Shown: positions 10,416-35,842 of the stretch, piece after piece
Layout: each line of letters opens with the position of its first letter
Numbering within the stretch: position 1 is the stretch's first letter
The notes under the pieces: generated by a model
What the model was told of the DNA's origin: nothing
Seen by the model: only the letters and a program-made list of their open reading frames with translations
The model's database searches: none
IMG/VR virus record: IMGVR_UViG_3300021256_000055
Span: 135,124 to 199,123 of that record
Source: a virus
Taxonomy: Duplodnaviria; Heunggongvirae; Uroviricota; Caudoviricetes
DNA: 64,000 nucleotides
Direction: 5' to 3' (one strand)
Program-made: the position numbers and the translations under genes

Positions 10416-10819
10416 TTAAGATCCTCCAATATTTTGTTAACTTCTTTTTCAGCTAACATATAATAATATGTTTTCGGGTCATACAAAAGTCTAACTCCAA
10501 TAATATCGGAATAAGAGCCCTCATAAGCGTATACTTCCAATTTTATTGGAAGATAACTACCCTTTTTAGATATTTTAGCCCAATTAAGCTTAATATCTCT
10601 TGCGATATCTTGCCTAATATCTTCTACTGTTAGAACAACATATGGACTCAAAAAAGGACCTTTATCATACGAAAACTCATATTCTAAGCCATCTTTGATT
10701 TCTATATAATTTAGAAAATCTAAATGATGACAAAGACTATTATTGTTTATCATATTTTCAAAAGTCTTTTGAGCCCTCTTTAAGTAAAAAAGGGGAGACC
10801 TACTAAGATATTGCTCCAT
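10412..10819 (-). CDS. hypothetical protein (135 aa) embedded in TerD array
   Basis: Intact ORF overlapping TerD1 by 4 nt. No motif. Confidence 0.5.
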   Translation of the reverse strand: MEQYLSRSPLFYLKRAQKTFENMINNNSLCHHLDFLNYIEIKDGLEYEFSYDKGPFLSPYVVLTVEDIRQDIARDIKLNWAKISKKGSYLPIKLEVYAYEGSYSDIIGVRLLYDPKTYYYMLAEKEVNKILEDLK

Positions 10820-10833
10820 AATCTCCCTATTTA

Positions 10834-11415: not shown

Positions 11416-11441
11416 TAACTACTCCTTAAATTTTTATTACT

Positions 11442-11455
11442 TATATAATATGTGA
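11442..11455 (-). promoter_or_regulatory. conserved TATAATATGT-type motif instance
   Basis: Plus-strand tatataatatgtga, upstream of TerD2. An AAGGAG ribosome-binding site lies between it and the ATG. Confidence 0.4.
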
Positions 11456-11471
11456 ATATTTTACGCTAAGT

Positions 11472-11825
11472 CTAGCTTTCAAGTAATTTAGAAACTTCAT
11501 AATTTGCTACATCTACATAATATTTATGCTCATCATAACTAATTTTGGCCATTATACTAAAACCTTCAACATAGAAGCTAATGCTAATTGGAATACATAT
11601 ATCCTTAATAGTATTTTTCCAAATTATTCTTAAATAATCTAATTGATAATCTAAATAACTTGGATCAGGACCAATTCTCATTCCGCTTATTTCTACAATA
11701 TAAAAATCTTCACCTTGCTTAGCCAACCTAACATAATTATATCCATTAGCAAATACAGCCCTTCTCAAAATAAGAAGGGCTTTCTTTAAGTAATTCTCAG
11801 GTGTATCAGTTATTTCTAAAAACAT
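11472..11825 (-). CDS. hypothetical protein (117 aa) embedded in TerD array
   Basis: Intact ORF. Confidence 0.5.
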   Translation of the reverse strand: MFLEITDTPENYLKKALLILRRAVFANGYNYVRLAKQGEDFYIVEISGMRIGPDPSYLDYQLDYLRIIWKNTIKDICIPISISFYVEGFSIMAKISYDEHKYYVDVANYEVSKLLES

Positions 11826-11827
11826 AT

Positions 11828-12355
11828 TTATTTATAACAAACTGAACTTACTGAAACTATTGAAGTATACGGATTAGTATCTACTTTATTTGGATAATCA
11901 GGATAGTTTGGGGTTCTTACATAAACTCTCTTTTGAAAATCCTGATAAGCGGTAGTATAAGACATATTATAAGTAGAATGACTTACACTATGCCTACGCC
12001 CATTATATACAAAATAGTACTCAGCACTATGATGTCTAGACTTTCTGGTTCTATGTCCCTCACTGTCAGTAACATAATAGTATTCTGTCCATGCGGGCTT
12101 ATATTCTCGCATTATATTCCATGACTCAGTATAAACTGGTCCACGCTCACTTTCAATCTCTGAAGTTGTATAGCTATATGTCTTATGAAGATGAACTATA
12201 CCTTTTCCAGCATAGAAAATCAAAACACAAGCTAATACAATTCCTACCAGAATCATAAAAGTCTTACCAACGCTGTCCCAAGGAATCTCATCCTTAAGTA
12301 CAGTAAGCGCAGAAGGCCTAGAACTGTACTTATTCTTTTCTGATGCCATTAGCAC
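11828..12355 (-). CDS. membrane-anchored hypothetical protein (175 aa), Tyr/Thr/His-rich ectodomain
   Basis: One N-terminal TM helix (FMILVGIVLACVLIFYAG). The rest is Y/T/S/H/R-rich. Confidence 0.5.
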   Translation of the reverse strand: MLMASEKNKYSSRPSALTVLKDEIPWDSVGKTFMILVGIVLACVLIFYAGKGIVHLHKTYSYTTSEIESERGPVYTESWNIMREYKPAWTEYYYVTDSEGHRTRKSRHHSAEYYFVYNGRRHSVSHSTYNMSYTTAYQDFQKRVYVRTPNYPDYPNKVDTNPYTSIVSVSSVCYK

Positions 12356-12930
12356 TGTCCACCGTACATACGAACGAATCCAGCTAATCCATTCTTGAAT
12401 CCGTCACCTTTTGCGCCAAACTTCCATTCACCATTATGACGATAAATTTCAGCAATCAAAAGGGCTGTCTCAGTAGAATAATCCTCGGTTAAATCAAAAC
12501 GAAGTAATTCTTCTCCAGCTGTATCTTCTTTATTTTTTACTGCAGTAAGATGAATAAATGCATTATCAACCATACCAAAGTTCTGTCTACGCTGATCAGC
12601 TTCATGAATTGTTACAACAATTGCAAGCTTGCTAATACTTGCTGGGATCTTTGTAAAATCAATATAAATCTGTTCATCATCACCGTCTCCGGCGCCGGTA
12701 CGGTTATCTCCCATATGTTTTACTGACTTTGAAGGATGCTCCAAATTATTATAGAAAACAAAATCTTCATCTTTCTGAAGTTTACCATTTGCGCCAAGCA
12801 TAAATACAGATGCATCCAAATCGAAATCAAAACCGCCACTATATTTATTTGTATCCCAACCAAGACCTACATAGGCATACTGTGTGGATTTTCCAAGTTC
12901 AATTTTCTGTCCTTTTACGAGATTAATCAT
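12349..12930 (-). CDS. terD: TerD-domain protein (paralogue 3, 193 aa)
   Basis: MINLVKGQKIEL...GLGWD...DFDLD...GDNRTGAGDGDDE...EIYRHNGEWKFGAKGDG. Confidence 0.85.
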   Translation of the reverse strand: MINLVKGQKIELGKSTQYAYVGLGWDTNKYSGGFDFDLDASVFMLGANGKLQKDEDFVFYNNLEHPSKSVKHMGDNRTGAGDGDDEQIYIDFTKIPASISKLAIVVTIHEADQRRQNFGMVDNAFIHLTAVKNKEDTAGEELLRFDLTEDYSTETALLIAEIYRHNGEWKFGAKGDGFKNGLAGFVRMYGGQC

Positions 12931-12943
12931 TTATATTCCTCCA

Positions 12944-12962
12944 GGGCGTTTTATAACGCCCC
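12944..12962 (-). other. GC-rich hairpin (gggcgttttataacgcccc) between TerD4 and TerD3
   Basis: Stem seen in the sequence. On the minus strand it is followed by a GGAGG ribosome-binding site, not a U-run, so it is more likely an intercistronic RNA structure than a strong terminator. Confidence 0.35.
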
Positions 12963-12975
12963 GATTTTTAATTTT

Positions 12976-13551
12976 TTAGTTATAGCGGTTAACAACAGCG
13001 CTGACATAATCAGCGTCTTTTACACCTTCACCAATAGCTGCGAACTTCCATTCACCGTTATGACGATAAATTTCACCAGCAATCAAACCTGTTGATGTAC
13101 CTTTAGATTCATCAAGATTGAAACGTGCAAGCTCTTCATTGCCATTCTTTGGATTGTAAAGACGAATATATGCATTACGCAAAGCAGACATATCCTGTCC
13201 ACGTTTTGATGCTTCATAAATATTCATGAAAACTACAATCTTATCTACATTTGAACGAACTTCATTCAATGAAATCTCAATTGTTTCATCATCACCGTCG
13301 CCACCACCAGTACGGTTATCTCCAGAGTGATGAATACCAGGAAGGTCCTTATTGCTGAAATAAACAGTTGATTCATTAAACTGTCGAGAAACTACTCTAC
13401 CATCTGAGCCCAAACAAACGCAAGAAGCATCACAGTCAAAATCTGCTGCCCAAGAACTCTGCACTGGGTCCCAACCAAGACCAACATTAATTTTTGTAAG
13501 GCTTGTACCTTTTGTAAGATCAATTTTCTGACCCTTTGTTAAATTAATCAT
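12976..13551 (-). CDS. terD: TerD-domain protein (divergent paralogue 4, 191 aa)
   Basis: MINLTKGQKIDL...GLGWDP...DFDCD...SGDNRTGGGDGDDE...EIYRHNGEWKFAAIGEG. Confidence 0.8.
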   Translation of the reverse strand: MINLTKGQKIDLTKGTSLTKINVGLGWDPVQSSWAADFDCDASCVCLGSDGRVVSRQFNESTVYFSNKDLPGIHHSGDNRTGGGDGDDETIEISLNEVRSNVDKIVVFMNIYEASKRGQDMSALRNAYIRLYNPKNGNEELARFNLDESKGTSTGLIAGEIYRHNGEWKFAAIGEGVKDADYVSAVVNRYN

Positions 13552-13574
13552 TTAACATCCTCCAAATATTTTAA

Positions 13575-14162
13575 TTACCAGCGATTAATAATTTCTGAAA
13601 TACGACTAGCATTTTTAATTGATTCACCAACCGCAGTGAAATTCCAACCATCTTCCGACTTAGACAATTCTCCTGCTATAAATCCTTCAACTGGTCCCAG
13701 GTCTTTATCCAAATCATAACGACAAAGTTCTTCATTAGTGTCTGCGTTATATACACGAATATAAGCATTTCTCAAACTTGTCATATTCTGATGACGATCT
13801 CGCGCATCATAAATATTCATAAAGATTGGAATACGTTCAACATTATTTGGAAGTTTGTCAAAGGTGATAGAAATCGTTTCATTATCTTTATTTCCGCCAC
13901 CAACACGATCATCACCAGAATGATGAACACCAGCCATATCTTTATGACCATAATAAACTACATAATCAGTTCCAAGAAGTTTACCCTTCTTGGAAAGACA
14001 TGCCAAAGAAGCATCACAATCAATATCTTCATCATTACTAAAAATTGATAAAAGACCCTTTTTGCGTTCTACTTCATCCCAGCCTAAAGCAACATTGATA
14101 TGCTTAAGCGTACCATCTTTTTTTACAAGGTTAATTCCCTGTCCTTTTGTTAAATTAATCAT
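13575..14162 (-). CDS. terD: TerD-domain protein (divergent paralogue 5, 195 aa)
   Basis: MINLTKGQGINL...ALGWDE...DIDCD...SGDDRVGGGNKDNE. More degenerate, but the same architecture. Confidence 0.7.
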   Translation of the reverse strand: MINLTKGQGINLVKKDGTLKHINVALGWDEVERKKGLLSIFSNDEDIDCDASLACLSKKGKLLGTDYVVYYGHKDMAGVHHSGDDRVGGGNKDNETISITFDKLPNNVERIPIFMNIYDARDRHQNMTSLRNAYIRVYNADTNEELCRYDLDKDLGPVEGFIAGELSKSEDGWNFTAVGESIKNASRISEIINRW

Positions 14163-14573: not shown

Positions 14574-14599
14574 AAAACCTAAAATAAAACCACCATTAA

Positions 14600-14618
14600 A
14601 AATGGTGGCTATAGTTCT
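14600..14618 (-). terminator. rho-independent terminator (ccaccattaaaaatggtgg)
   Basis: 7-bp stem followed on the minus strand by ttttattttaggtttt. Sits 3' of the 14621..15232 gene. Confidence 0.55.
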
Positions 14619-14620: not shown

Positions 14621-15232
14621 TTAGAGAACCAAATCTCCATCAGCTGATGTTACAACACGAATACCATAAGTTTTTGTATCTACTTCGGCTGTTGGATCAA
14701 TAGCTACAGTTGCGTCCTTAACAATTGTTAGTGTCTGAGGAAGCTGAGCTACTTCATTTGCAAGTGCTGATTCTTTTGCACAATTGAATACACAATAGTC
14801 ATAACAAAGACCAGTAAAATACAAATTTACTTTTTCACCATTCTTAATAGCGTCATCAATTGGCTTCATATCTTTTTCTGACAGTCGTCCAAGAACATCA
14901 ACACCATACTCTTCTTCAGCTGCATTCTGGCCTTTATAAATAAAGGCAACTGGCTTGTCCTTTGCAAATGCAGAAATCATATCAGATACACGCCAATCCA
15001 AATCAGAACCAGCTGTGCCATCTACACAGTGTGCAGGCCAAGGACCATTCTGCTCCTTAAATGAACAGTGATTAGTAGGATGCATATCCTTTGTGGCGAT
15101 AATCATATCAGGATTAATTCTTTCCTGAGCAATCTTAAGCTTATTAAAAGCTTCATCCCACTTGTCATAACCGACTCCAAGTGAGCCGTTAATAAAATCG
15201 TTCTGAACATCTACCAAAACTAAAATATTCAT
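14621..15232 (-). CDS. pncA: nicotinamidase/pyrazinamidase-like isochorismatase-family hydrolase
   Basis: VLVDVQNDF N-terminal Asp motif. Catalytic Cys lies in YFTGLCYDYCV. Fold-typical length of 203 aa. Confidence 0.7.
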   Translation of the reverse strand: MNILVLVDVQNDFINGSLGVGYDKWDEAFNKLKIAQERINPDMIIATKDMHPTNHCSFKEQNGPWPAHCVDGTAGSDLDWRVSDMISAFAKDKPVAFIYKGQNAAEEEYGVDVLGRLSEKDMKPIDDAIKNGEKVNLYFTGLCYDYCVFNCAKESALANEVAQLPQTLTIVKDATVAIDPTAEVDTKTYGIRVVTSADGDLVL

Positions 15233-15250
15233 GTTTTAACTCCTTACGAA

Positions 15251-15261
15251 TATAATATGTA
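15251..15261 (-). promoter_or_regulatory. conserved TATAATATGT motif instance
   Basis: Plus-strand tataatatgta, upstream of the pncA-like gene. An AAGGAG ribosome-binding site follows. Confidence 0.4.
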
Positions 15262-15283
15262 TTTTAATATTAAAAATGCTAAA

Positions 15284-15550
15284 TTATTTTAATCTCTCAT
15301 GATTAAATTTTTTTGTATATTTGTTAACTTCTGCTTCTGTGAGCTTACCATAAATTCTTTCCATAAGAAAGAGTATTGCGTCTAATCCTGCATAAAATCC
15401 ATCAAAATTAAAAAATAAAATTTTATTAAAAAAATCTTTTTTAGACAAATTATCGGCGGGCATAACGCAAGCACTTCTTATACCCTGCTGTTCTTTTGGA
15501 GATACCTCAACTTGTTCACGATTTGCATTATACCTAAAAACCAAATCCAT
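15284..15550 (-). CDS. hypothetical protein (88 aa)
   Basis: Intact ORF. Confidence 0.45.
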   Translation of the reverse strand: MDLVFRYNANREQVEVSPKEQQGIRSACVMPADNLSKKDFFNKILFFNFDGFYAGLDAILFLMERIYGKLTEAEVNKYTKKFNHERLK

Positions 15551-15594
15551 AATAAGCTCCTTCCCTTCCTAGGTATAATATGTCTATGAAGATA

Positions 15595-16152
15595 CTATAA
15601 GTCTAAATTTTTAGATAAAATTTCTTTTCTAATACGAGTTGAAGATTCTGGATTATTCATTGGAATATATTCATATGGAATATCTGTTGGCAAGTCTGTA
15701 TCATATCCGGGGCGATTAAAAACTATAAGCTTTGTCAAAGCCAAAATTTCTTCCCACTTATACCATGTTTTAATTTTCTGAAGTGAATCTGAGCCAATAG
15801 CTACATAAAATTCTATACCAGCAGCATTTGCTTGTTTTTTAGCTAGCTCAATATTATCAATATCAGCTTGGCAAAAAGATTCTATAAAAAATTTAATTGT
15901 ATCTATAAAACGCCAATTTTCTGGAATATTAGCTTCAATTTTAGAAACTATAATATTTGGTAAATAGCTAACTTTATCCTCTACCATTTTACAGCGATCC
16001 TCAAATGAGTACATTGTTTGATTTGGCTTATAGTATGTAATATTTGTTGGTACAAGAATTACCTTATCAAACTTATCTGACAAATATTCAACTATTTCTT
16101 TATGTGCACTGTGAAATGGATCAAATGTACCACCATAAATTACATATCTCAT
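15595..16152 (-). CDS. nadD: nicotinate/nicotinamide mononucleotide adenylyltransferase (NadD/NMNAT family)
   Basis: GGTFDPFHSAH is the (H/T)xGH nucleotidyltransferase motif. The C-terminal SSTRIR is the ISSTxxR motif of NadD. Confidence 0.75.
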   Translation of the reverse strand: MRYVIYGGTFDPFHSAHKEIVEYLSDKFDKVILVPTNITYYKPNQTMYSFEDRCKMVEDKVSYLPNIIVSKIEANIPENWRFIDTIKFFIESFCQADIDNIELAKKQANAAGIEFYVAIGSDSLQKIKTWYKWEEILALTKLIVFNRPGYDTDLPTDIPYEYIPMNNPESSTRIRKEILSKNLDL

Positions 16153-16322
16153 TAAAAAACCTCTGCAAGAAATTTACCAATAAAAATTGAGGCTGTCCCA
16201 CCTAGAAGGATAAAAACTAATCTACGAAAGAAATGTGTCCACTTAAAAGACTCATCTGGAGTAAGCTTTACTTCATATAGAGTCTTATCTTCCTCATCCT
16301 TAATTTTAATAGTCTTTTCCAT
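16152..16322 (-). CDS. small membrane protein (about 56 aa), not in the supplied ORF track
   Basis: My own translation: MEKTIKIKDEEDKTLYEVKLTPDESFKWTHFFRRLVFILLGGTASIFIGKFLAEVF. Its stop overlaps the nadD start (TAATG). The conserved motif abuts its ATG. Confidence 0.4.
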   Translation of the reverse strand: MEKTIKIKDEEDKTLYEVKLTPDESFKWTHFFRRLVFILLGGTASIFIGKFLAEVF

Positions 16323-16323
16323 A

Positions 16324-16337
16324 TTTATAATATGTAA
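16324..16337 (-). promoter_or_regulatory. conserved TTTACATATTATAAA motif instance abutting a start codon
   Basis: Minus-strand reading is ACATATTATAAAT then ATG. No ribosome-binding site in between. Confidence 0.45.
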
Positions 16338-16360
16338 TTTATATTAAGAAATTATGAATT

Positions 16361-16921
16361 TTAATTTTTAAAAGTAAGTTCTACCTGATAAACTTCTGAG
16401 AAAGGATATACTTTAATATTTTCTTGTATAGTAATACCACTTGGGCTTGGGATTACATTACTAGCATAATCTGAAATTTCATTACTTATTTTATATTTTT
16501 CTAAAGTACTATCCAACTTATGCTGTAATAAAGCTGCATTATAATTATTCATTTGCTTACCAATCATAGTCTGAGATACAGCCTGAATATCCTGCTTTAT
16601 CTTACTATAAAGCATACGGTCCCTAAGTGATATTTCATCGGGCATATCACCACTATATAAACGGTCTAACTCATCCGCCTCTTCAAAGTCATCCCCACCA
16701 AAATAATCTACTGCATCATGAAATGATGCTTGATTAGTTGCGTCCCCAATCTTAAGCTTATCTTTTCTTACCTTACTTGTCTTTGGTACATCTACTTTCT
16801 CTAGACTAATGGGAGAAATGCCTTTGGAATCTAAAGTCAACTCATTAGGGCTTATAGTAACTTTATCATCTGCAAATGTAAATTTATTAAATATTGATAA
16901 AAGGTTCTTTTGAAGAGACAT
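16361..16921 (-). CDS. hypothetical protein (186 aa)
   Basis: Intact ORF. Confidence 0.5.
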   Translation of the reverse strand: MSLQKNLLSIFNKFTFADDKVTISPNELTLDSKGISPISLEKVDVPKTSKVRKDKLKIGDATNQASFHDAVDYFGGDDFEEADELDRLYSGDMPDEISLRDRMLYSKIKQDIQAVSQTMIGKQMNNYNAALLQHKLDSTLEKYKISNEISDYASNVIPSPSGITIQENIKVYPFSEVYQVELTFKN

Positions 16922-17114
16922 AAATTTCTATTACCCTAGCGCCTTCCGGCCATAATGGATGATTTTCATTTGGCTGTTCATCAGCTTCTCTATAATATGC
17001 TAAAATTTGGTCCATTGATTCAAATTCGCGAATTACTCTTAATCTGTTATCTGTGCCCTCACTAGTATAAATTGGAGCATTAGTAACTACACAAAATTTT
17101 TTTACGAAATTCAT
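16887..17114 (-). CDS. hypothetical protein (75 aa)
   Basis: Intact ORF overlapping its downstream gene. Confidence 0.4.
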   Translation of the reverse strand: MNFVKKFCVVTNAPIYTSEGTDNRLRVIREFESMDQILAYYREADEQPNENHPLWPEGARVIEIYVSSKEPFINI

Positions 17115-17144
17115 AATAATAGATTAGCGTAGGATAATAAAAAA

Positions 17145-17164
17145 GGACTGCATAGATGCAGTCC
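17145..17164 (-). terminator. rho-independent terminator (ggactgcatagatgcagtcc)
   Basis: 8-bp stem followed by tttttt on the minus strand. Sits 3' of the Nudix gene. Confidence 0.6.
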
Positions 17165-17187
17165 CTTAAATTTATTTTTAAATTATA

Positions 17188-17820
17188 TTACTTTTTATAT
17201 TTTGCTTCAAATTTTGCTTTTGCAAAAGCGGCTTTTTTAGCTTTACTATAATAATCAGCAATCTTTATTTGTTCCTTAAGCGCAGTAAGCTGTTCGTAAC
17301 TTTGCCAAAGAAAAGCGCCCATAACTGAATCATCATCACTTCCAAGATAATCATTTGGGTTATCTACTTCTACAACATTGATAAACTCATTCTCGTCAAG
17401 ATGCTGTTTATCACGCTCACCTGAAACTTCCACCAAAAATCCATTCATATGATTATTCATAAACGCCGGATTTGGACATTTTCTATAAAGCTGTGTAATA
17501 ATTTTTACATCTTTATAACCAGTTTCTTCCTTAACTTCTCTTACACAAGCTTCAGCTGGCGTTTCACCTTCCTCAACTGTTCCCGAAGGAAATTCATAAA
17601 CTTCCTTATTTACGCCATGACGAAACTCTTTTACCATAATAAACTTTTTTGTGTCTTTATTATAAATAAGAGCTGAACACCAATCTGGACATTTTAAAGA
17701 AACAAACTTACCCTGCTTACCCGCTGGATTAGTTTTAACAGTTTCCATAACTGTCCAAATAAATGTTTTTAAAAGTTCTTTTGTTTCACCAATTTTCCAT
17801 TCTGCCATTTTAAGCTCCAT
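17188..17820 (-). CDS. Nudix hydrolase (ADP-ribose/NAD-derivative pyrophosphatase-like)
   Basis: Perfect Nudix box: GTVEEGETPAEACVREVKEETGY (G-x5-E-x7-REVxEExGY). Confidence 0.8.
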   Translation of the reverse strand: MELKMAEWKIGETKELLKTFIWTVMETVKTNPAGKQGKFVSLKCPDWCSALIYNKDTKKFIMVKEFRHGVNKEVYEFPSGTVEEGETPAEACVREVKEETGYKDVKIITQLYRKCPNPAFMNNHMNGFLVEVSGERDKQHLDENEFINVVEVDNPNDYLGSDDDSVMGAFLWQSYEQLTALKEQIKIADYYSKAKKAAFAKAKFEAKYKK

Positions 17821-17821
17821 A

Positions 17822-17834
17822 TTTATAATATGTT
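17822..17834 (-). promoter_or_regulatory. conserved motif instance abutting the Nudix start codon
   Basis: Minus-strand reading is ACATATTATAAAT then ATG. Confidence 0.45.
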
Positions 17835-19362
17835 ATCTAATGTTATAAATGTCTGAATATTTATCTTTCAAATAGTCGATAAAATAATGTGGATTAAAAT
17901 CCTCATCTGTTATATATTTAATCCAGTCAAGGGTATCTCTTAAATCTGGCTCAGCATCAGTAAATACCCAATCTTTCATCCATTTATTTATTTTACTAAA
18001 GTCACATTTTGCTAAATCGCCTTTAATGTCGAGCTCTTCAGTATCTTCCAACATATAATTGTAATACATTGCATTCAACATATTTCCAATTGCATAAGTT
18101 GGAAAATATCCAAAACCACTTGACCAATGCATATCTTGAAGAATTCCTTCTTTATCATTTGGTGGTGTTATACCAAGATAGTCCTTATATTTATCATTCC
18201 AAATTTTTGGCAAATCTTCAATCTTAGCCTGCTTATTAAGAATAAGCTGTTCAATTTCATAGCGGATTATAATATGGAACGTATATGTTAATTCATCTGC
18301 TTCTGTACGAATAAGTGTTGGCTTAACTTCATTAAGCGCTTCATAAAGTTCTTGTGGAGTTACATCATTAAGTACATTAGGAATAATTTCTTTTAATTCA
18401 TCAAAAATACCAAAAATAAACTCTTTTGATGAGCACAAAACATTTTCATAAAATCTTGATACTGATTCATGTTTTGAAAGAGATTTATTATCACAGAACT
18501 TATCATATGCTTCAGGATTTCCATTCTGCATAAAAAGTGCATGGCCACCTTCATGAATACAGGAGTACATACTATACTGAAAAGCAGTTGGATAATAATG
18601 TGTTGTAACACGTGCATCATTCTTTGTCATCTGCTCTGTAAATGGATGCTCAGACTCTGCTAAAAGGCCCTTATTAAAATTAAATCCAATTTTAGAAAGA
18701 ACTAAATTGCTAATCTTTTTTTGTTGTTCAATAGAAACTTCTCTACTAAGGAAATCAGTCCTAATCTTCTTTTTAGAGTTTACAATCTTTTTAAGAAATG
18801 GTACCATTTCTGTTTTGAACTCACCAAACCAGTAATCCAAGTCCTTAGTTGTAATATCCTTTTCGTATTCATAGAATACAGCATCATAAACATTATCAAA
18901 CTTTGGTTTATCTGCCCACTTATCTAACTGTTCAAAAGTTACATCCCTAACCGCGCTTAGAGAATCCTTAAATAAATTAAAATCACTTGCTTGCTTAGCC
19001 TGTTGCCAATCAGAGAAAGCTTTTAAGAAAACCCTACAATGTTTATCAGCCATTTCCGGAGTAATATTTTTGCTTCTACAATAATCTTCATATAGAAGCT
19101 CAATAGTTTTACGAGCATATTTGTCTTTTATAATATGACGATGCTTATAAAAGTAGAGCATAGTTTTAATATATTTTTTATCTTTGAATCTTTTAAAATT
19201 CTGATTACTGATAAAAGCTTCTAATTCGCTATGCTCATCCATAGCGTCTTTTGGACAAATAGTTTCTCTATCAAAAGCCAATAAATTATTTATACTGTTG
19301 TATTTATTTGATTCTTCTAAAAACTTAATCAAATAATCTCTTTTCTTCTGTACGCTACTCAC
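17833..19362 (-). CDS. M32-family carboxypeptidase (carboxypeptidase Taq-like metallopeptidase)
   Basis: HEGGHALF is the HExxH motif. IRTEADELTY and GILQDMHWSSGFGYFPTYAIGNM match M32 signature blocks (IRxEADE; QDxHW...GYFPTY). Confidence 0.75.
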   Translation of the reverse strand: MSSVQKKRDYLIKFLEESNKYNSINNLLAFDRETICPKDAMDEHSELEAFISNQNFKRFKDKKYIKTMLYFYKHRHIIKDKYARKTIELLYEDYCRSKNITPEMADKHCRVFLKAFSDWQQAKQASDFNLFKDSLSAVRDVTFEQLDKWADKPKFDNVYDAVFYEYEKDITTKDLDYWFGEFKTEMVPFLKKIVNSKKKIRTDFLSREVSIEQQKKISNLVLSKIGFNFNKGLLAESEHPFTEQMTKNDARVTTHYYPTAFQYSMYSCIHEGGHALFMQNGNPEAYDKFCDNKSLSKHESVSRFYENVLCSSKEFIFGIFDELKEIIPNVLNDVTPQELYEALNEVKPTLIRTEADELTYTFHIIIRYEIEQLILNKQAKIEDLPKIWNDKYKDYLGITPPNDKEGILQDMHWSSGFGYFPTYAIGNMLNAMYYNYMLEDTEELDIKGDLAKCDFSKINKWMKDWVFTDAEPDLRDTLDWIKYITDEDFNPHYFIDYLKDKYSDIYNIR

Positions 19363-20206
19363 CTAAAATTACCTTCTTAAATACACGATAGTTTGTATCA
19401 TCATCTGGTCTACAATATACCGCAAACTCAATATTTCTAAAACAATGCTTAAACTCTGGCAAAACTGCCTTGTACGCTTTTGCTACAATTACTGGATCAT
19501 TTCTAAATGCACCACATCCAAAAGCGCCAACAATAAGTGTATCACAACCATTATTTGCAGCAACATTAAAAATACGTCGCGCACGTTTAACATGAAGATT
19601 ATACAAATCTTCATCTGAAATTTCAACCTTCTCTACAGCAAGCTCTTCATTATAAGCATTTTTTGGATTTGGCCGCAAATTCGGTGCAGCACAAGTAAGT
19701 ACATCTACTTTCATCCAGTCGTCATTCTGAAGAATATGATAATTATCTTCCTTAAAAATTACAACTCCAGGAGTATAAATAATATCATCATTATGGAGAG
19801 GCCCTAAACTTTCCCTATGCGGAGTATAAAACTTATCAAAACATTCTTTAATATTAAGGCTGTTATAAAGTGTTGAGCATCTACATAAACATTCTTCCTG
19901 TGCTGAAGAACCTTTTGTTACTCCACCACCTGGTGTAGTTGCTGAAGCAAAATTCAATACACATACTTTATTTGAAATATACTCCCTAGCTGCATCAAAA
20001 GAACTTGACTTTGTAACATATATCTTTGATGGTCCCTGGTATTTATCTTCAGCTTTAGGAATTTCTGTATTTTCCAAAATAATCTGTTGATTTTCAGTTG
20101 CTTTTTCTACAGCTTCCTTTAAGTAAGCCGTAGTTTTAATTCTGTCAACAGTATCATTAAAAACTGAAATATTACTTTCTCTTATTGAAAAAGATTTTCC
20201 TGACAT
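19355..20206 (-). CDS. bacterial-type poly(ADP-ribose) glycohydrolase / macro-domain protein (DUF2263/TIGR02452-like)
   Basis: ATTPGGGVTKGSSAQEECLCRCS matches the GGG-x6-8-QEE PARG signature. The downstream Gly-rich segment GAFGCGAF fits a macro fold. Confidence 0.6.
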   Translation of the reverse strand: MSGKSFSIRESNISVFNDTVDRIKTTAYLKEAVEKATENQQIILENTEIPKAEDKYQGPSKIYVTKSSSFDAAREYISNKVCVLNFASATTPGGGVTKGSSAQEECLCRCSTLYNSLNIKECFDKFYTPHRESLGPLHNDDIIYTPGVVIFKEDNYHILQNDDWMKVDVLTCAAPNLRPNPKNAYNEELAVEKVEISDEDLYNLHVKRARRIFNVAANNGCDTLIVGAFGCGAFRNDPVIVAKAYKAVLPEFKHCFRNIEFAVYCRPDDDTNYRVFKKVILGE

Positions 20207-20759
20207 TTTTAGTTTCCTCCAAACTGTACCTTTCTCTTGAAATTAATTTGTTACATTTATAACATTTACTAATTGTGCCATCTCTAGCAATAATAGTTTT
20301 ATGTCTACAACTATTTTTTTTAGAAAAATTAAAAGTTAGATATGGTATCTTACAATCATACATGCTTATACATGCATCTTTGAAATTATTAAACATAACC
20401 CAATATTTTGTTGACATCCAACAATTTGTAAAACCATAACAAGTTGGCGCAGTAAATGCATATAATTTTGCTATTTTCATACCTTTCTTAAGGCTAAATC
20501 TATCTTTATGACATCTACTTATACCAAATCTAATATCCGGCTCCGTAGTCGCGGTGCCTTCTTTAATGATAAAAGCCGCAAATAACATTATTGGCTTGCC
20601 CTTATCATTTGTAATTACACTATAGAGTTCCTTCTTACAAAGGGTATAAAGGCTCTCTCCCATCAGTATAGCTGTATCTGGTAAGCGTCTAATTTCACTT
20701 ACTAGTTCACCTTTCGCAAGTTTTTGATATGTTTCATTAAAATCTATATACTTACCCAT
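20172..20759 (-). CDS. hypothetical protein (195 aa) with C-terminal CxxC pair
   Basis: Intact ORF. C-terminal CYKC and a scattered Cys/His zinc-ribbon-like arrangement. Confidence 0.45.
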   Translation of the reverse strand: MGKYIDFNETYQKLAKGELVSEIRRLPDTAILMGESLYTLCKKELYSVITNDKGKPIMLFAAFIIKEGTATTEPDIRFGISRCHKDRFSLKKGMKIAKLYAFTAPTCYGFTNCWMSTKYWVMFNNFKDACISMYDCKIPYLTFNFSKKNSCRHKTIIARDGTISKCYKCNKLISRERYSLEETKNVRKIFFNKRK

Positions 20760-21336
20760 ATCTATAGATATCCTTTACCTTCAATGCATTACCTTCTGTA
20801 TAGCATTCCATCATATCAAGGTTTCTAAACTGAAATGTTTTACTATTTATTAAATCATACAGCTCTGAATCACCCTTGCCTGTTAGCTTATTATAAAGAT
20901 ACCTTACGAAAAGGCCATGTGTTACACAAATAATTGCTTCATCTTCTTTTAATTCCATCCCTAAAATTTTTAATATTAAAGCTGATACTTGTTTATCAAA
21001 TGTATCTAGGTCTGGATGACAAATTTCATCAAATTCCTCTTTTGAAATTTCCCAGAATTTTTTATTTCCAAGAGAAGAGCAATCAAGTTCTTTTAATAGG
21101 TCTGTTTCAGTAACAAATTGTGGATCAACTAAAAATAAATTTTTGGCGGTTGAATGACACCTTACAGTTGGCGATACCCAAATTTTAAGAGTACTACATT
21201 CAATATTATTACCTACTTTTTTCCACCAGTCCATAGCATCAAAGGGTTCAATGTCATACTGGTCATAATTTTCTTTCATTTCACCTGAAAGATTTGCTGC
21301 TGTAGGCGCATGCCTAATAAAATATACTTTAGCCAT
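20752..21336 (-). CDS. histidine phosphatase superfamily (phosphoglycerate-mutase-like) protein
   Basis: N-terminal FIRHAPTAAN is an RHG-type motif. A second His lies in CVTHGLFVRYL. Confidence 0.5.
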   Translation of the reverse strand: MAKVYFIRHAPTAANLSGEMKENYDQYDIEPFDAMDWWKKVGNNIECSTLKIWVSPTVRCHSTAKNLFLVDPQFVTETDLLKELDCSSLGNKKFWEISKEEFDEICHPDLDTFDKQVSALILKILGMELKEDEAIICVTHGLFVRYLYNKLTGKGDSELYDLINSKTFQFRNLDMMECYTEGNALKVKDIYRYG

Positions 21337-21361
21337 AATAATTTTCCTATAATAATAAAAT

Positions 21362-21387
21362 AGCCTCAGATTTGATAATCCGAGGCT
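21362..21387 (-). terminator. rho-independent terminator (agcctcagatttgataatccgaggct)
   Basis: 8-bp stem plus T-rich tail on the minus strand. Confidence 0.5.
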
Positions 21388-21393
21388 TTCTTA

Positions 21394-21843
21394 TTAAACC
21401 TTCTTTTTTATTTGAGGTGTATCCTCATAAAGGTAAAGTGTTCCTTCATCCTTATAAGAAATAATCTTAGTATCTGAAGTTTCATAACCAAAAATCAATG
21501 GTAATAAATCCTCACATGCATAAAACTCGGTATAGGCCTGAACATTATCCAAAGGATAAAGCCATAAGGCATACTTGAAATTTTTTCCTTTTGCCTTATT
21601 TAAGTTACTAATAAGGCCTTTAACATAGTCTTTCTGCTTTTCATTCTCCGCAGAAAAGGCTAGTTTTTTATAAAGTCTAAACTGACTTAGCTTTTCTTCT
21701 TTTGTATGGTATACACTAAGAAGATTTTTTACAAGCCTATCATTTTCACGATCAAAAATTTCATACATCAAGACTCTATCAATATCCGATGTGTGGTCCT
21801 TTGAAAGTTCATTTGTTCGATACAATACCATCTTATTCTCCAT
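21394..21843 (-). CDS. hypothetical protein (149 aa)
   Basis: Intact ORF. Conserved motif upstream. Confidence 0.5.
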   Translation of the reverse strand: MENKMVLYRTNELSKDHTSDIDRVLMYEIFDRENDRLVKNLLSVYHTKEEKLSQFRLYKKLAFSAENEKQKDYVKGLISNLNKAKGKNFKYALWLYPLDNVQAYTEFYACEDLLPLIFGYETSDTKIISYKDEGTLYLYEDTPQIKKKV

Positions 21844-21847
21844 GCAA

Positions 21848-21862
21848 TTATAATATGTAAAT
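21848..21862 (-). promoter_or_regulatory. conserved motif instance (ttataatatgtaaat)
   Basis: 4 nt upstream of the minus-strand ATG at 21843. Confidence 0.45.
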
Positions 21863-21876
21863 AATTGACATAAAGA

Positions 21877-22185
21877 CTAGTTATTCATCGGAATATTTTC
21901 AGGTTTATTATTAATTTCCCAAGCATAAGTAGCGATAGCTTTTAATACCTCACTATCACCCGCGTCATATCTGAAAAGACCTTTTCTGGTAGCTACAAAA
22001 TAATCTACACCAAATTGCTTTGCTGCTTGTTCAACTGCATTTACAAAAGCTTCTTCTTTAGAAATAACTTCTGTTCCTGATTCTTCAGGCTTAACATAAT
22101 TTTCAAAGCTGTTATCAACTTCGATTTTAGCGTCCATATTTCCCATTGATGATTCTCCTAATTCTCGTATACTATAATTACGCAT
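21877..22185 (-). CDS. hypothetical protein (102 aa)
   Basis: Intact ORF. Confidence 0.45.
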   Translation of the reverse strand: MRNYSIRELGESSMGNMDAKIEVDNSFENYVKPEESGTEVISKEEAFVNAVEQAAKQFGVDYFVATRKGLFRYDAGDSEVLKAIATYAWEINNKPENIPMNN

Positions 22186-22553
22186 TCCTGCTTAGAATCA
22201 TATGTAAAACAAGAAACTTTTTTATTACCTATATTTTCTTTTATAAGCTTAATTACCGATTCGCCACTACCACCTTTAGTGAAGGACCAATCATGAAATC
22301 TAACTGATATAACTTTTTGACTAGTAGGCTTAGAAGTATCATACATAACAAGTAAGCATTCTTGTTCAGAGTCATATGAAATAACTTCAATATAACCCTT
22401 ACTTAAAAAGTTACGAATTTCTTTTGCAACGGTTTCACCACTACCCGCTTTAGTAAAAGACCAATCACGAATACGTACTGATGCATACCTCTGTTCTGCA
22501 AATACAAAACTACTAACAAATAAAATAATAAGAATACTTAGAAATTTTTTCAT
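22158..22553 (-). CDS. secreted protein with internal tandem duplication (131 aa)
   Basis: Signal peptide. Two about 50-aa repeats: VRIRDWSFTKAGSGETVAKEI...YDSEQECLLVMYD and VRFHDWSFTKGGSGESVIKLI...YDSKQECVIIVYE. Confidence 0.5.
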   Translation of the reverse strand: MKKFLSILIILFVSSFVFAEQRYASVRIRDWSFTKAGSGETVAKEIRNFLSKGYIEVISYDSEQECLLVMYDTSKPTSQKVISVRFHDWSFTKGGSGESVIKLIKENIGNKKVSCFTYDSKQECVIIVYEN

Positions 22554-22555
22554 TT

Positions 22556-23374
22556 TTATCCTCTTAATCCTGCAATATTTATTTGATAAATATGCCCTTC
22601 ACATATTAAATATGCCTGATGATATTTTGTTTCTACCTCAGGAGCTTTAGAATAAATTGTACGTGGTCCACTTTTATAGATAGGCTCTCTACCGTCACTT
22701 ATCATATCATCTCGACCGAAATCTAATGCTACCTGAGCTTCTTCCTGATATTTTTGCTCTTGAAGTTTAATATCTTCTTCAGTTAATTTATCTCGTTTCT
22801 CTTCAGGAATTTCAATATAAGTGTTTTCAAACCTATCAGAATCTACCCTATGTATAACAATTCTTGAATGTGTTAATGGAGGTTCCACAGTACCTACCTC
22901 ATAAGGTGGCTCATATTGTTTTTTAGAAATCCTAAAATTTGGATATAGTTTTATATAGGCAGTAATTGAGGGATCACAATACATTTCAGCTGTTTTATTA
23001 AGACCAATCATAGAAAAAAGACTATCAAGTACTCTTATAGACTGCGCAAAATAAGACTGTACACCTGATCCTTTAACAAGTTCTTTTTCTATAAAAATCT
23101 GTTCACCCTTTTGAGCTTCAAAAACCTTTTTAAGAGTCATAAAGCCTATTTCATATTCTGCCTTTTGTTTATAACTCGCAATGGTATTTTTTATCATGTC
23201 TTCGGGAAGCTTAGTATCTTTAAGTTCTGCTTCCAATTTTTCGTCCCACTGCTTGTTAGACTTAATAATGTGCTTTTTTGTAGTTTCTGAAATAAGATGC
23301 TTATAAAAAGCCTCATACTCAATTTTAGCGGTAGATAAAGTATCATCTACCGTTGTATGTTTTAATATTTCCAC
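22556..23374 (-). CDS. hypothetical protein (272 aa)
   Basis: Intact ORF. Confidence 0.5.
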   Translation of the reverse strand: MEILKHTTVDDTLSTAKIEYEAFYKHLISETTKKHIIKSNKQWDEKLEAELKDTKLPEDMIKNTIASYKQKAEYEIGFMTLKKVFEAQKGEQIFIEKELVKGSGVQSYFAQSIRVLDSLFSMIGLNKTAEMYCDPSITAYIKLYPNFRISKKQYEPPYEVGTVEPPLTHSRIVIHRVDSDRFENTYIEIPEEKRDKLTEEDIKLQEQKYQEEAQVALDFGRDDMISDGREPIYKSGPRTIYSKAPEVETKYHQAYLICEGHIYQINIAGLRG

Positions 23375-23437
23375 TATATCTCCTACGAAATGCCTCTTTA
23401 GTAAAAATACTTAAGGTCTTTTTCTCTTAAAAAATTT

Positions 23438-24226
23438 TTACCAAAGATTTTCAATATAGAAAGGCAAATCTGGATGATAATAGTCAATATTGATATATCT
23501 GCGCTTCCACTTATTACGCTTTATGATACCAACAATATTTTCATTATGATTTCCAACTTTACCAATGCGAATAAATGCATCAAGTTCCTCATAAGAGAAT
23601 CCAAGCTTATCCTCATCTGACTTATATGACCCATCCTCATTTACGGACATACCATCAATTGGAGTTTTATTATAAAGTTTTTCTGGAAGTCCAAGATACT
23701 TTGCAATAGCGCGAACTTCTGTTTTTGTAAATCTTGCAATTGGAGCAAATGCGCCAGTAGAGTCTCCCCAAACTGTATCATATCCACAAGCAGTTTCAGA
23801 AGCGTTACATGTATTTGCAGGATAAGCATTTCCCATCAAAGCAGCAATACCATAAATTGTAGTCATACGAATACGTGCAGGCGTATTTGTACTATACTGG
23901 TCTGATACTTTGCCTTTTGTTTCTTCAAGAATTGTATCAGTTAACTTTTTATAGGCTTCACCAATATTTACTTCAAGGCTCTTAATACCAAGAGCGTCAC
24001 AAGCTGCCTTAGCGTCATCAATATCTTTCTGTTCACCACATGGGAGACGAACCCCAATAACTTTATCAGCGCCAAGTGCTTCTACACAAAGCTTTCCAGT
24101 AGTAGTTGAATCAACACCTCCTGAAATACCAAGTACAACTTTTGCATCTGGGCCCTTATCAGCAAACCAGCTACGAATCCAAGCAATACAGCTTTCCGTC
24201 TCTTTCTTTACATCAAACTTATACAT
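23438..24226 (-). CDS. nadE: NH3-dependent NAD+ synthetase
   Basis: PP-loop GISGGVDSTT. Length of 262 aa and overall layout are typical of NadE. Confidence 0.8.
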   Translation of the reverse strand: MYKFDVKKETESCIAWIRSWFADKGPDAKVVLGISGGVDSTTTGKLCVEALGADKVIGVRLPCGEQKDIDDAKAACDALGIKSLEVNIGEAYKKLTDTILEETKGKVSDQYSTNTPARIRMTTIYGIAALMGNAYPANTCNASETACGYDTVWGDSTGAFAPIARFTKTEVRAIAKYLGLPEKLYNKTPIDGMSVNEDGSYKSDEDKLGFSYEELDAFIRIGKVGNHNENIVGIIKRNKWKRRYINIDYYHPDLPFYIENLW

Positions 24227-24243: not shown

Positions 24244-24258
24244 TATTATATGTAAACT
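24244..24258 (-). promoter_or_regulatory. conserved motif instance (tattatatgtaaact)
   Basis: The 15-mer is identical to the copy at 42686..42700. 18 nt upstream of the nadE start. Confidence 0.45.
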
Positions 24259-24268: not shown

Positions 24269-26146
24269 TTACCAAAGTTCCTTTGTTTCAGGCTTTATAT
24301 TTTCATCCCAATATGCACCTGTAAAGGTTTCTTCATAATCTACGCCTTTTCTATTTTTCGCAAAATATATATCCATTTCTTCGTAGCCGTGCTCGCCTTT
24401 ATCATCTTTCTGATTAGCTGCCTTTACTACATGATAACCAAATTTATACATAATTTTAAGAAATGCAATATAATATTTATACTTAAAGCTTCTTTTAGGA
24501 GAATAACCATCAAATCTCCAAGAACCATTATAATTCTCTATCTTAACATGAATTTTAATACATTTATGATTTTCATAAACTTCATTACTGATATCCAAAT
24601 GGCCCCGTAATATTGATTCTTTACTTACGCCTTCAATATTGGCAAATGTATTTTCTATCTTAGACAAATCAGAAATTCTAATACCATCTACTAATTCTTT
24701 CCAAATAAAATAATCTCTAGCATAATGTTCTTTCTTTTTTTGGTCATCTTCCAGATATCTCAAATAGTAATCATGGTCATGATCACTAGGCACTATTACA
24801 TAATTATCTACTGGGAATACTATAGTATTCATACAGCTATGTATACTTGTACTATGCCAATAACCATCCTTAATTGCATATCTTAGCCAGCTATCTCTTA
24901 ATGCAGTTGTTTCTAATTCGGATATATCTGTATCTTTCTTAACAATATAATTCTTACTAGAATCTAAGTCAATATCAAGATAATCCTCACGATCACCAAT
25001 TTGTGGATGATAACTTTTTGCAAAGATTTTTCCTTTATTTACATCTTGACCATTTACCATAAGTACTTCTGGACGAATAAAATAACTATCTTTACTTCTA
25101 AGATTACCTGTTAAAATTTTAGTAGCTGATTCAATCAAATCCTTCGGAAGTTTACTAAAAGACTTAATAGAATCAATAATGGCTGACATTGTATTATCAA
25201 AATCTTTATATAAATCTTTTACCTCTGTATTATATATTGGAGAATACTCTAACCCAGCGTTTTTAAAAGCTTTAGTTACTCTTGCTTTTAACGATTCTTT
25301 TCCTACAAGGCCATTCTCAATAATATATTGCTTTTCTATAGCATAAGATGAGTCGTCAAGGCACAAGAACCTATCAAAATATCCCTTACTGACTACATCT
25401 GCGAAACTTACATTTACAAGTGTTCCATCAAGATTATAATTCTTTTTAGTATCATATAATGGTATTAAATCAATAATTCCCTTTGCTGTTAAGCTTTTCT
25501 TAAACTCACCAAAATATCTTTTTTCATGAAAGTCCTTACTCTCTACCCAACCACGGCCCATATAATTACAGCCCGACTTGTGATATCCACCAATTTGGTT
25601 AAACCAAACTTCTGCCGTAATTTTTGCTAAGAGCTCATTTGGTGCCTCAACTAATAAAACTACTTTGCCTGTCTTTCCATGGTCCTTTCCATAAGAATCA
25701 CCAAAATCAACATCCGCGTTATAAACTTCACCATCCATCCAATCAGTCATTCTGCTAATAGCGCTGAATAAATATTGCTTCTGTGCTCTATGACGACTCT
25801 GCATTAAATCAGTATACTCTTCATAAGAAAGCTCTTTTTTATATTTAGGAAATTTATAACTTTCAAGATAATTAATATAATTTTCCCCAAAAAACTCTTT
25901 TTGAGTAAGTGGGTAAAATAAGCTATAAGTGCTATGATGTGATCTAGTTTTTGTAACATTTTCAAAAGGATTATGCTTATAATTTTTATTTGTTTTCAAT
26001 TCCCCAAATGCTTTTTCTTCTCTTTTCTCTACATAGCCCTTGAGTGTTACAATATCATCTGCAAAAATACCTGTCTTTAAGCCTTTTGCATCTTTTATAT
26101 GAAGAGCATTAATTACTTTTGATTCATCAAATTTTAATTTTTCCAT
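24269..26146 (-). CDS. large hypothetical protein (625 aa)
   Basis: Intact ORF. No motif I can assign. A His/Asp-rich patch VPSDHDHDYY is present. Confidence 0.55.
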   Translation of the reverse strand: MEKLKFDESKVINALHIKDAKGLKTGIFADDIVTLKGYVEKREEKAFGELKTNKNYKHNPFENVTKTRSHHSTYSLFYPLTQKEFFGENYINYLESYKFPKYKKELSYEEYTDLMQSRHRAQKQYLFSAISRMTDWMDGEVYNADVDFGDSYGKDHGKTGKVVLLVEAPNELLAKITAEVWFNQIGGYHKSGCNYMGRGWVESKDFHEKRYFGEFKKSLTAKGIIDLIPLYDTKKNYNLDGTLVNVSFADVVSKGYFDRFLCLDDSSYAIEKQYIIENGLVGKESLKARVTKAFKNAGLEYSPIYNTEVKDLYKDFDNTMSAIIDSIKSFSKLPKDLIESATKILTGNLRSKDSYFIRPEVLMVNGQDVNKGKIFAKSYHPQIGDREDYLDIDLDSSKNYIVKKDTDISELETTALRDSWLRYAIKDGYWHSTSIHSCMNTIVFPVDNYVIVPSDHDHDYYLRYLEDDQKKKEHYARDYFIWKELVDGIRISDLSKIENTFANIEGVSKESILRGHLDISNEVYENHKCIKIHVKIENYNGSWRFDGYSPKRSFKYKYYIAFLKIMYKFGYHVVKAANQKDDKGEHGYEEMDIYFAKNRKGVDYEETFTGAYWDENIKPETKELW

Positions 26147-26859: not shown

Positions 26860-26906
26860 ATATAGCTCCTTTTAATATAATATATAAATAATTCTATAAA
26901 AGTATA

Positions 26907-35817: not shown

Positions 35818-35842
35818 TAATATTCTCCTATATAAATATAAA

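Follow-up and report, generated by a model that had tools for sequence, protein, structure and literature searches.

Bacterial antiphage systems commonly end in the depletion of nicotinamide adenine dinucleotide (NAD+), and three phage NAD+ routes have been experimentally proven (NARP1, NARP2 and NARP3), none of which goes through the nicotinate branch. NARP1 and NARP1-AP are made up of Adps and Namat, together with the macrodomain phosphatase Adpp; NARP2, as in the NadV and NatV proteins of the Vibrio phage KVP40, associates a NAMPT with an NMNAT-Nudix protein; and NARP3 combines PnuC with a NadR-like kinase/adenylyltransferase (PMC13464706). Genes of the nicotinate branch were reported, on a computational basis, by Li et al. 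2024 (Microbiome, PMC11662467) in gut metagenomes, where the "NAD-jumbo phages" carry pncB-nadD-nadE clusters (e.g. Kuafu_71). A phage pncA is also mentioned in that work, two roles are proposed (NAD+ supply and counter-defence), and the same use against NAD+ depletion is suggested as for the NARP2/KVP40 genes. The survey of Iyer et al. 2022 only covered NadV, NadM and NadR. Bacillus phage G has a PncA-like gene and NadE. The locus studied here belongs to a stretch of 64,000 nucleotides (hereafter, the window) from the IMG/VR virus record IMGVR_UViG_3300021256_000055 (positions 135,124 to 199,123), in which a PncA-like nicotinamidase, a NadD-type adenylyltransferase, an NH3-dependent NAD+ synthetase (NadE) and a Nudix hydrolase are encoded near each other.

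The window is the reverse complement of approximately 58.9-122.9 kb of the ENA contig ERZ12302812 NODE_59 (203,783 bp), of which 84 kb were examined: the window itself and a 10-kb flank on each side. The Pfam scan of the window covered the open reading frames (ORFs) of at least 120 aa, except a few of 123-149 aa, and precomputed gene and Pfam calls were used for the flanks. The interpretation favored here, to which a probability of about 0.6 can be given, is that these genes represent the local version of an NAD+ salvage module shared by a clade of large viral genomes, most of them from the gut, and that the module would keep NAD+ up during infection.

The four enzymes announced by the original prediction were recovered at their positions (Table 1), all on the minus strand and with their catalytic motifs kept, according to both family profiles and PDB matches. 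The assignment of the NadD, NadE and PncA-like genes to unrelated families, which the original prediction had named as a ground for abandoning it, was not observed: Pfam, NCBIfam and the PDB agree on the assigned families. The PncA-like protein narrowly passes the Pfam Isochorismatase cutoff (30.5 bits vs 27), and its best matches among solved structures are all nicotinamidases (3r2j, 1im5, 3pl1, 2h0r). Its triad (D8/K100/C147) and metal ligands (D49/H51/H68; DMHPTNHCSF...WPAHCV) are kept in the alignment with nicotinamidase structures, and the protein appears to be a divergent member of the nicotinamidase family. The NadD-like protein matches Pfam CTP_transf_like (1.7e-22), has the GGTFDPFHSAH and SSTRIR motifs, and finds its best NCBIfam and PDB matches exclusively among nicotinate mononucleotide (NaMN) adenylyltransferases; within NCBIfam, the NadD models match at 1e-27, whereas the NadR and archaeal NMNAT models only reach E-values of 1e-3 to 1e-4. 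NadE matches Pfam NAD_synthase (7e-50), passes TIGR00552 (157.6 bits vs a cutoff of 63.65) and has the SGGVDS PP-loop. Its best PDB matches are NH3-dependent NAD synthetases (5e-33), and it is a single-domain protein in which no glutaminase domain was found by family or PDB matches. The Nudix protein contains the Nudix box GTVEEGETPAEACVREVKEETGY, and its top 18 PDB matches are ADP-ribose or ADP-sugar pyrophosphatases or homologues of these, its best NCBIfam match being NudE; the box and the similarity to characterized ADP-ribose pyrophosphatases (ADPRases) suggest that it belongs to this subfamily. Its start is more likely at 17808 (206 aa) than at 17820, since the public gene call has 206 aa and a Shine-Dalgarno sequence precedes the second ATG. 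The deamidated route of the original prediction is also supported, as PncA and NadE have no use outside the nicotinate branch and the relatives discussed below have the same genes beside a true nicotinate phosphoribosyltransferase (PncB).

In the proposed route, the PncA-like enzyme would deamidate the nicotinamide released by NADases and sirtuins, giving nicotinate and ammonia. A nicotinate phosphoribosyltransferase, either from the host or encoded elsewhere on the contig, would combine nicotinate with phosphoribosyl pyrophosphate (PRPP) to form NaMN, which the NadD-type enzyme would adenylate to nicotinate adenine dinucleotide (NaAD). The ammonia-dependent NadE would then make NAD+ from NaAD and could use the ammonia freed by PncA. 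In parallel, the Nudix enzyme would split free ADP-ribose into AMP and ribose-5-phosphate, the latter of which can re-enter PRPP synthesis, and this pool would probably also receive ADP-ribose derivatives from a PARG and a histidine phosphatase encoded among these genes. As a result of this flux, NAD+ would remain available in infection, most likely in response to its depletion, whether caused by host NADase defences or by NAD+ consumers of the element itself.

The locus resembles the NAD-jumbo phages in being part of a metagenomic, probably viral genome of more than 200 kb in which the nicotinate-branch genes nadD and nadE are clustered. These phages are defined by a size over 200 kb and by the presence of every gene of at least one NAD+ pathway; here, the contig measures 203,783 bp, PncB was not found in the 84 kb examined, no viral hallmarks were seen among the window and flank proteins compared with PHROGs and, on present evidence, the pathway may be incomplete. 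A further difference is that the window adds an ADPRase-type Nudix, a PARG and a histidine phosphatase. As in NARP2, the route would start from nicotinamide and use an adenylyltransferase and an ADP-ribose pyrophosphatase-type Nudix. Nevertheless, it would be deamidated (PncA, NadE) and require two additional ATP-consuming steps, its adenylyltransferase is of the NadD rather than of the NadM/NadR type, and its Nudix is a separate gene; the NARP2 combination of a NAMPT (NadV) and a NadM/NadR-type adenylyltransferase was not found among the scanned window ORFs. NARP1 and NARP1-AP share with the locus the presumed aim of rebuilding NAD+ from NADase products and the association of a macrodomain-family enzyme with a phosphatase, which could process derivatives of ADP-ribose. 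Yet the macrodomain of the window is of the PARG type (TIGR02452) and not of the Poa1p type, ADP-ribose is predicted to be split instead of pyrophosphorylated, and the scanned window ORFs contain no Pribosyl_synth or NAPRTase-family match that could correspond to a PRPS-like Adps or a NAMPT-like Namat. NARP3 is likewise a phage-encoded NAD+ route, but its precursor is nicotinamide riboside, and the scan of the window ORFs returned neither the PnuC nor the NadR family. Finally, the bacterial Preiss-Handler pathway (PncA-PncB-NadD-NadE) is matched by three enzymes of four, with their catalytic residues, and by all four in an operon-like arrangement in relatives; the window differs from it by the lack of PncB, by the divergence of its PncA and NadD and by its setting in a large, orphan-rich mobile genome. 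The distinctive local features are the absence of PncB, the separate ADPRase and the interleaved PARG, phosphatase and M32 peptidase.

A different assortment of these enzymes was observed in phage Phass-1 (OQ749652, L018 8480-12918), where a nicotinamidase, a PRPS-like "ribose-phosphate pyrophosphokinase", a NAMPT-like phosphoribosyltransferase, a small gene and an unannotated NadE homologue follow each other. This run looks like NARP1-type Adps and Namat joined to nicotinate-branch enzymes and would make up a hybrid route if real.

The module can be followed in a number of relatives. One of them, L008 (ENA contig NODE_28 of 225,101 bp, also present as NCBI AUXO017836535, L009), was found via a homologue of the 625-aa protein p625 and is syntenic with the window, with identities of 97% for NadE, 88% for the M32 carboxypeptidase, 76% for PncA, 66% for PARG, 63% for the histidine phosphatase (HisPhos), 56% for p625 and 55% for NadD. 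About 6 kb upstream of its p625 homologue (p627), L008 encodes a genuine 438-aa NAPRTase (PF17767 and PF04095). The arrangement is repeated in L024, another close relative (PncA 76% and NadE 96% identical to those of the window), which contains the pair formed by PncB and its 712-aa neighbour and has no p625. HisPhos, p195, PARG and M32 are kept together in both L008 and L024, and an unrelated 226-aa gene occupies the position of the Nudix in both. More distantly, pncA-pncB-nadD-nadE stand in a row within 3.5 kb in IMG/VR loci L012-L014; the order is PncB-Nudix-NadE-NadD in L010 and PncA-NadE-PncB-NadD-x-Nudix in L019 and in the 296-kb scaffold L020, so that Nudix homologues lie beside NAD genes in these three loci; and PncA, NadE and PncB are found within 8 kb in the phage LR756501 (735 kb). 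PncB is present in L008, L009, L024, L010, L012-L014, L019, L020 and L022. The grouping of these NAD genes is not due to chance, as it is seen again in ten or more viral loci, related or not, and a linkage conserved across so much divergence suggests a Preiss-Handler module that is repeatedly accompanied by an ADPRase.

The salvage genes are under purifying selection: relative to the PncB-bearing relatives, the ratios of nonsynonymous to synonymous substitution rates (dN/dS) are 0.14-0.16 for PncA, 0.30-0.32 for NadD and 0.04-0.05 for NadE, rough values as dS is near 1 for some genes. These ratios bear on the idea that the locus is a decaying remnant, in which PncB has been lost and the remaining genes form no pathway and are drifting. 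PncB and its 712-aa neighbour are indeed absent where the relatives have both, and the region is rearranged relative to L008; the block made up of p301, p303 and the PurA-like gene, for instance, follows Band_7 on its downstream side in the window but is located upstream in L008. Nevertheless, all ORFs are intact, the catalytic residues are conserved, dN/dS lies between 0.04 and 0.32, and the window has an ADPRase-type Nudix that those relatives do not have at this position. Moreover, PncB is common in low-GC bacteria that use Shine-Dalgarno sequences. A decaying remnant thus seems very improbable.

Several points weigh against the salvage module interpretation. The original prediction had stated that only the PncB step was not identified, and the window scan indeed finds PncA, NadD and NadE without PncB: no NAPRTase (PF04095/PF17767), NAMPT, PRPP synthetase, PnuC or NadR was found by Pfam in the scanned window ORFs, the precomputed Pfam calls report no PncB in the 10-kb flanks, tblastn searches of the window and flanks with the PncB of L008 and its 712-aa neighbour found nothing, and neither did a regular expression describing the PRPP-binding loop of type I when applied to the six frames of the window. 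In addition, no contig with a length of 203,783 bp, or of 940,564 bp (the length of a second contig with proteins identical to window proteins), carries any of the best 120 PncB homologues (at least 61% identity) or any of the six homologues found for the 712-aa neighbour. Because no listed homologue lies on a contig of these lengths, the PncB segment may, by this indirect argument, be truly absent rather than merely moved, and the pathway may be incomplete here. Other points concern the remaining genes. The PncA-like and NadD-like proteins score below every NCBIfam equivalog cutoff (51 bits vs 174 for the nicotinamidase equivalog; 96.7 vs 112.45 for TIGR00482), and therefore their substrate specificity is not secured. 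The NAD genes are also interspersed with unrelated genes and split by terminator-like hairpins. Lastly, the viral identity of the source is indirect, no virion or packaging family (capsid, portal, terminase, tail) having been recognized when 30 window and flank proteins were compared with PHROGs.

The genome is, at least locally, a PncB-less variant of the conserved phage Preiss-Handler module, and the PncB step would probably be carried out by a host enzyme or by a copy elsewhere in the 204-kb contig. The original prediction had instead put forward the uncharacterized 625-aa and 228-aa neighbours of NadE for this step, a proposal that did not survive the analysis. Profile searches returned no NAPRT or NAMPT match for the two proteins; neither of them matches a family in Pfam, NCBIfam or PHROGs, and each has an hhalign probability of 0.3% against a 10-sequence PncB profile. 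The 627-aa homologue of p625 coexists with a genuine PncB in L008, L024 retains the other genes of the module but not p625, and the 228-aa protein has no homologue in L008. One could still suppose that one of these proteins is a non-orthologous nicotinate or nicotinamide phosphoribosyltransferase that completes the pathway, as might be suggested by the position of the 625-aa gene, which ends 42 bp upstream of NadE. Against this stand the results in the three libraries and with hhalign, the lack of a PRPP-binding motif and the distribution of a tiny family: a profile search among 1.84 billion proteins gave two full-length representatives of p625, plus short proteins sharing its N-terminal ~80 residues. 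The AlphaFold2 model of p625 (6-sequence alignment) is of low confidence (pLDDT 55, pTM 0.44), too poor for a fold search. Such a replacement of PncB therefore appears extremely improbable.

The gene list of the original prediction was right about the four enzymes but overlooked a PARG, a histidine phosphatase and, outside the window, a sirtuin. The PARG macrodomain has an intact GGG-X7-QEE signature, TPGGGVTKGSSAQEE aligning with the signature of the Deinococcus radiodurans PARG; it scores 176.5 bits against TIGR02452 (DUF2263; cutoff 50) and matches the PARGs of D. radiodurans and T. curvata in the PDB (1e-28). The histidine phosphatase has a weak CobC-like NCBIfam match and no PDB match, and it is conserved in L008 and L024 with a dN/dS of ~0.1. 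A canonical sirtuin of 245 aa (PF02146, 1.7e-54) is encoded on the same contig a few kb beyond the start of the window, separated by one small gene from a 433-aa RNA ligase (L003 10943-13566). Since these three proteins are encoded nearby, the neighbourhood can be regarded as a wider NAD+/ADP-ribose island that extends beyond the biosynthetic set.

This island allows for another purpose, namely that the genes serve the element's own NAD+ economy and not counter-defence. In that case, PncA would remove nicotinamide, by which sirtuins and ADP-ribosyltransferases are inhibited as their product, and the NAD+ consumed by these enzymes would be restored by NadD and NadE. The clearance of O-acyl-ADP-ribose, ADP-ribose and the phosphates of these compounds would fall to PARG, the Nudix and the histidine phosphatase. 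The sirtuin just outside the window would be in line with this, as would the SIR2 protein, 55% identical to it, that is encoded near NadE and the other NAD genes in L011, the intact catalytic signature of PARG and the joint conservation of HisPhos, p195, PARG and M32 in L008 and L024; furthermore, Li et al. argue that phage NAD+ consumers exist in NAD-jumbo phages. Yet distant relatives keep PncA, PncB, NadD, NadE and Nudix with no PARG or HisPhos nearby, and the salvage core is accordingly independent of these two genes. Moreover, the two purposes are not mutually exclusive. An exclusive role in the element's own economy is thus possible but doubtful, while a counter-defence purpose is plausible by analogy with the NARP literature; sequence alone cannot decide between counter-defence and NAD+ upkeep, and both may hold.

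The original prediction placed these genes on a phage, a statement that agrees with the gene style, the contig size and the IMG/VR relatives, but for which no virion or packaging gene could be adduced from the window and flank ORFs tested against PHROGs. The window has a GC content of 31% and a long minus-strand array of co-directional, mostly orphan genes, with intergenic gaps around the NAD block that are mostly under 100 bp or negative. NadE has its closest relatives on IMG/VR viral contigs (130-164 kb) and in faecal "Bacteriophage sp." records. Alternatively, the window could come from another large mobile element or from a cellular genome, in which case its genes would be ordinary housekeeping salvage genes. 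The missing capsid, portal, terminase and tail families among the window and flank ORFs tested would fit this possibility, as would the lack of any match in GenBank phages to the DNA of the block or, by tblastn, to an 806-aa flank protein, and the occurrence of identical proteins on the 940,564-bp contig. However, the co-directional arrays of orphan genes, the low GC content, the NadE relatives and the absence of tRNA, ribosomal and core-metabolism genes from the window speak against it. The Beta-CASP protein and p303 also match PHROGs (3.9e-97 and 1e-44), and no relative of the 625-aa protein was found in 185,579 GTDB species genomes. A non-phage origin is hence unlikely, and the source is likely to be a large phage, as judged from contig size, gene style and IMG/VR relatives. 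As a 96%-identical NadE is also present on a 578,814-bp contig, in addition to the identical proteins of the 940,564-bp one, the true genome could exceed 204 kb by far, or these contigs could reflect a concatemer assembly or an integrated element.

Regarding the host, a Shine-Dalgarno core (GGAG/GAGG/AGGA, 5-20 nt before the start) precedes 30 of the 54 minus-strand genes, compared to 8.5% of random positions. This frequency hints at a host outside the Bacteroidota, in contrast to the predicted hosts of the Kuafu clade, which are Bacteroidota; the host probably uses Shine-Dalgarno sequences and belongs to the low-GC Bacillota.

The "one co-directional block" of the original prediction holds for the orientation of the genes, as all of them are on the minus strand, but not for their compactness: the four genes lie scattered among some 14 others across 9.6 kb and, being divided by three hairpins, do not form a tight operon (Table 1). 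The hairpins, with 10-13 paired positions on the coding strand, are located in the gaps after p149, Nudix and PncA; sites of this kind number 12 in 18.5 kb, compared to 7.0 +/- 2.2 in shuffled sequences. Because they divide the block, three separate transcription units are probable, respectively running from p228 to p149, from HisPhos to Nudix and from p75 to PncA. Among the other genes, the M32 carboxypeptidase is conserved in close relatives without an evident link to NAD+, p88 has a weak homologue at the same position in L008 (31% identity), and the stop codon of p56 overlaps the start codon of NadD.

Table 1. Coordinates of the genes and putative signals of the NAD+ locus in the window (aa, amino acids)
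Feature	Position	Strand	Basis or remark
ACATATTATA	11444-11453 and 5949-5958	-	further coding-strand copies
Terminator-like hairpin	14588..14610	-	would end the p75-p186-p56-NadD-p88-PncA unit
PncA-like nicotinamidase, 203 aa	14621..15232	-	Pfam Isochorismatase and nicotinamidase structures
ACATATTATA	15251-15260	-	upstream of PncA
p88, conserved 88-aa protein between NadD and PncA	15284..15550	-	no family match
ACATATTATA	15574-15583	-	upstream of p88
NadD-type nicotinate-mononucleotide adenylyltransferase, 185 aa	15595..16152	-	CTP_transf_like, NCBIfam, PDB
p75, p186, p56	16152-17114	-	
p56, possible 56-aa membrane ORF	16152..16322	-	ORF list; not among the public gene calls of the contig
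ACATATTATA	16326-16335	-	upstream of p56/NadD
Terminator-like hairpin	17142..17167	-	would end the HisPhos-p195-PARG-M32-Nudix unit
Nudix hydrolase, ADP-ribose pyrophosphatase type	17188..17820	-	Pfam NUDIX 2.5e-16, PDB
ACATATTATA	17824-17833	-	upstream of Nudix
M32 (Taq-type) carboxypeptidase	17833..19362	-	Pfam Peptidase_M32, 1.9e-143
Bacterial-type PARG macrodomain, 283 aa	19355..20206	-	TIGR02452, PDB
p195	20172-20759	-	
Histidine phosphatase (branch 1), 194 aa	20752..21336	-	Pfam His_Phos_1, 2.2e-9
Terminator-like hairpin	21362..21387	-	would end the p228-p625-NadE-...-p149 unit
Four small or uncharacterized genes	21394-23374	-	
ACATATTATA	21849-21858	-	upstream of p149
NH3-dependent NAD+ synthetase NadE, 262 aa	23438..24226	-	NAD_synthase, TIGR00552, PDB
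One-mismatch variants of the 11-mer TACATATTATA	24244-24254 (NadE), 26876-26886 (p228)	-	
p625, 625 aa, clade-restricted	24269..26146	-	no family match
p228, 228 aa	26173..26859	-	no family match
Divergent PurA-like gene	26935-28038	-	
ACATATTATA	28056-28065	-	upstream of the PurA-like gene

The window contains ten copies of the 10-mer ACATATTATA, including eight on the coding strand, when 1.17 copies would be expected (an approximately nine-fold excess), and none of 100 shuffles reaches ten. It lies 4-31 nt before the starts of PncA, p88, p56/NadD (4 nt in the case of p56), Nudix, p149, the PurA-like gene, one TerD gene and p171, and in both L008 and L024 it is also kept before the genes homologous to NadD, p88 and p149. 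It is probably a promoter element specific to this phage clade, which would place the NAD genes in one temporal class without being specific to them. Its position implies later start codons for both Nudix (17808) and p149 (21831). A scan for sigma-70 promoters gave 99 sites against 93 in the shuffled background, which is not above chance, and it was not used.

Several other genes of the window were recorded. The region directly downstream of PncA in the direction of transcription contains a lipoprotein-like ORF followed by five TerD-domain paralogues (E-values from 1e-49 to 1e-73) next to a rhomboid protease gene (9840-14162, with 9279-9836, minus strand); three TerD genes also adjoin the NAD genes in the IMG/VR locus L014. 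Between the hairpin after p149 and NadE, a 131-aa secreted-looking protein (22158-22553, minus strand) has two internal repeats (…RIRDWSFTKAGSGETVAKEI…, …RFHDWSFTKGGSGESVIKLI…) and is 60% identical to its L008 homologue, with no family match. The PurA-like gene of Table 1 encodes a very divergent adenylosuccinate-synthetase-like protein of 367 aa that keeps the GDEGKG loop and matches PHROG 1211 (5e-24); its PDB match to PurA only reaches an E-value of 4e-4, and no PurZ entry of the PDB was matched, although the PHROG is annotated as PurZ. Together with p301 and p303 (28794-30672), it is conserved in L008, L011, L014 and L024, and p303 has a DVTGSM motif and the look of a von Willebrand factor A domain, without a Pfam match. 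A Beta-CASP/RMMBL nuclease (PHROG 36352, 3.9e-97), an AAA ATPase and a C5 cytosine methylase of 636 aa are encoded at 34360-37794 (minus strand) and 39321-40424 (plus strand), and Beta-CASP and AAA genes are also found near the NAD cluster of the 296-kb scaffold L020. Further away, a 659-aa beta-ketoacyl synthase (2376-4355, minus strand) with N- and C-terminal domains of this family, followed by an 81-aa ORF, is unusual for a phage-like genome, and a single ORF of 5,671 aa (43718-60733, minus strand), also annotated as one gene in the public contig, had no Pfam domain when scanned in three pieces.

The concept of nicotinate-branch NAD+ genes in jumbo phages had already been published from metagenomes in 2024, and the window adds a variant and its context to it rather than a new principle. 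Tentatively, PncA-(PncB)-NadD-NadE-ADPRase could represent a fourth phage NAD+ reconstitution system against NADase defences, one that follows the deamidated route. The PncB-less variant would then tap the host enzyme or rely on one of the orphan proteins encoded in the block, and more kinds of ADP-ribose derivatives could be recycled thanks to PARG and the histidine phosphatase. The locus and its relatives provide a comparison set for the nicotinate-branch route, with and without PncB, the ADPRase Nudix and the PARG/phosphatase pair.

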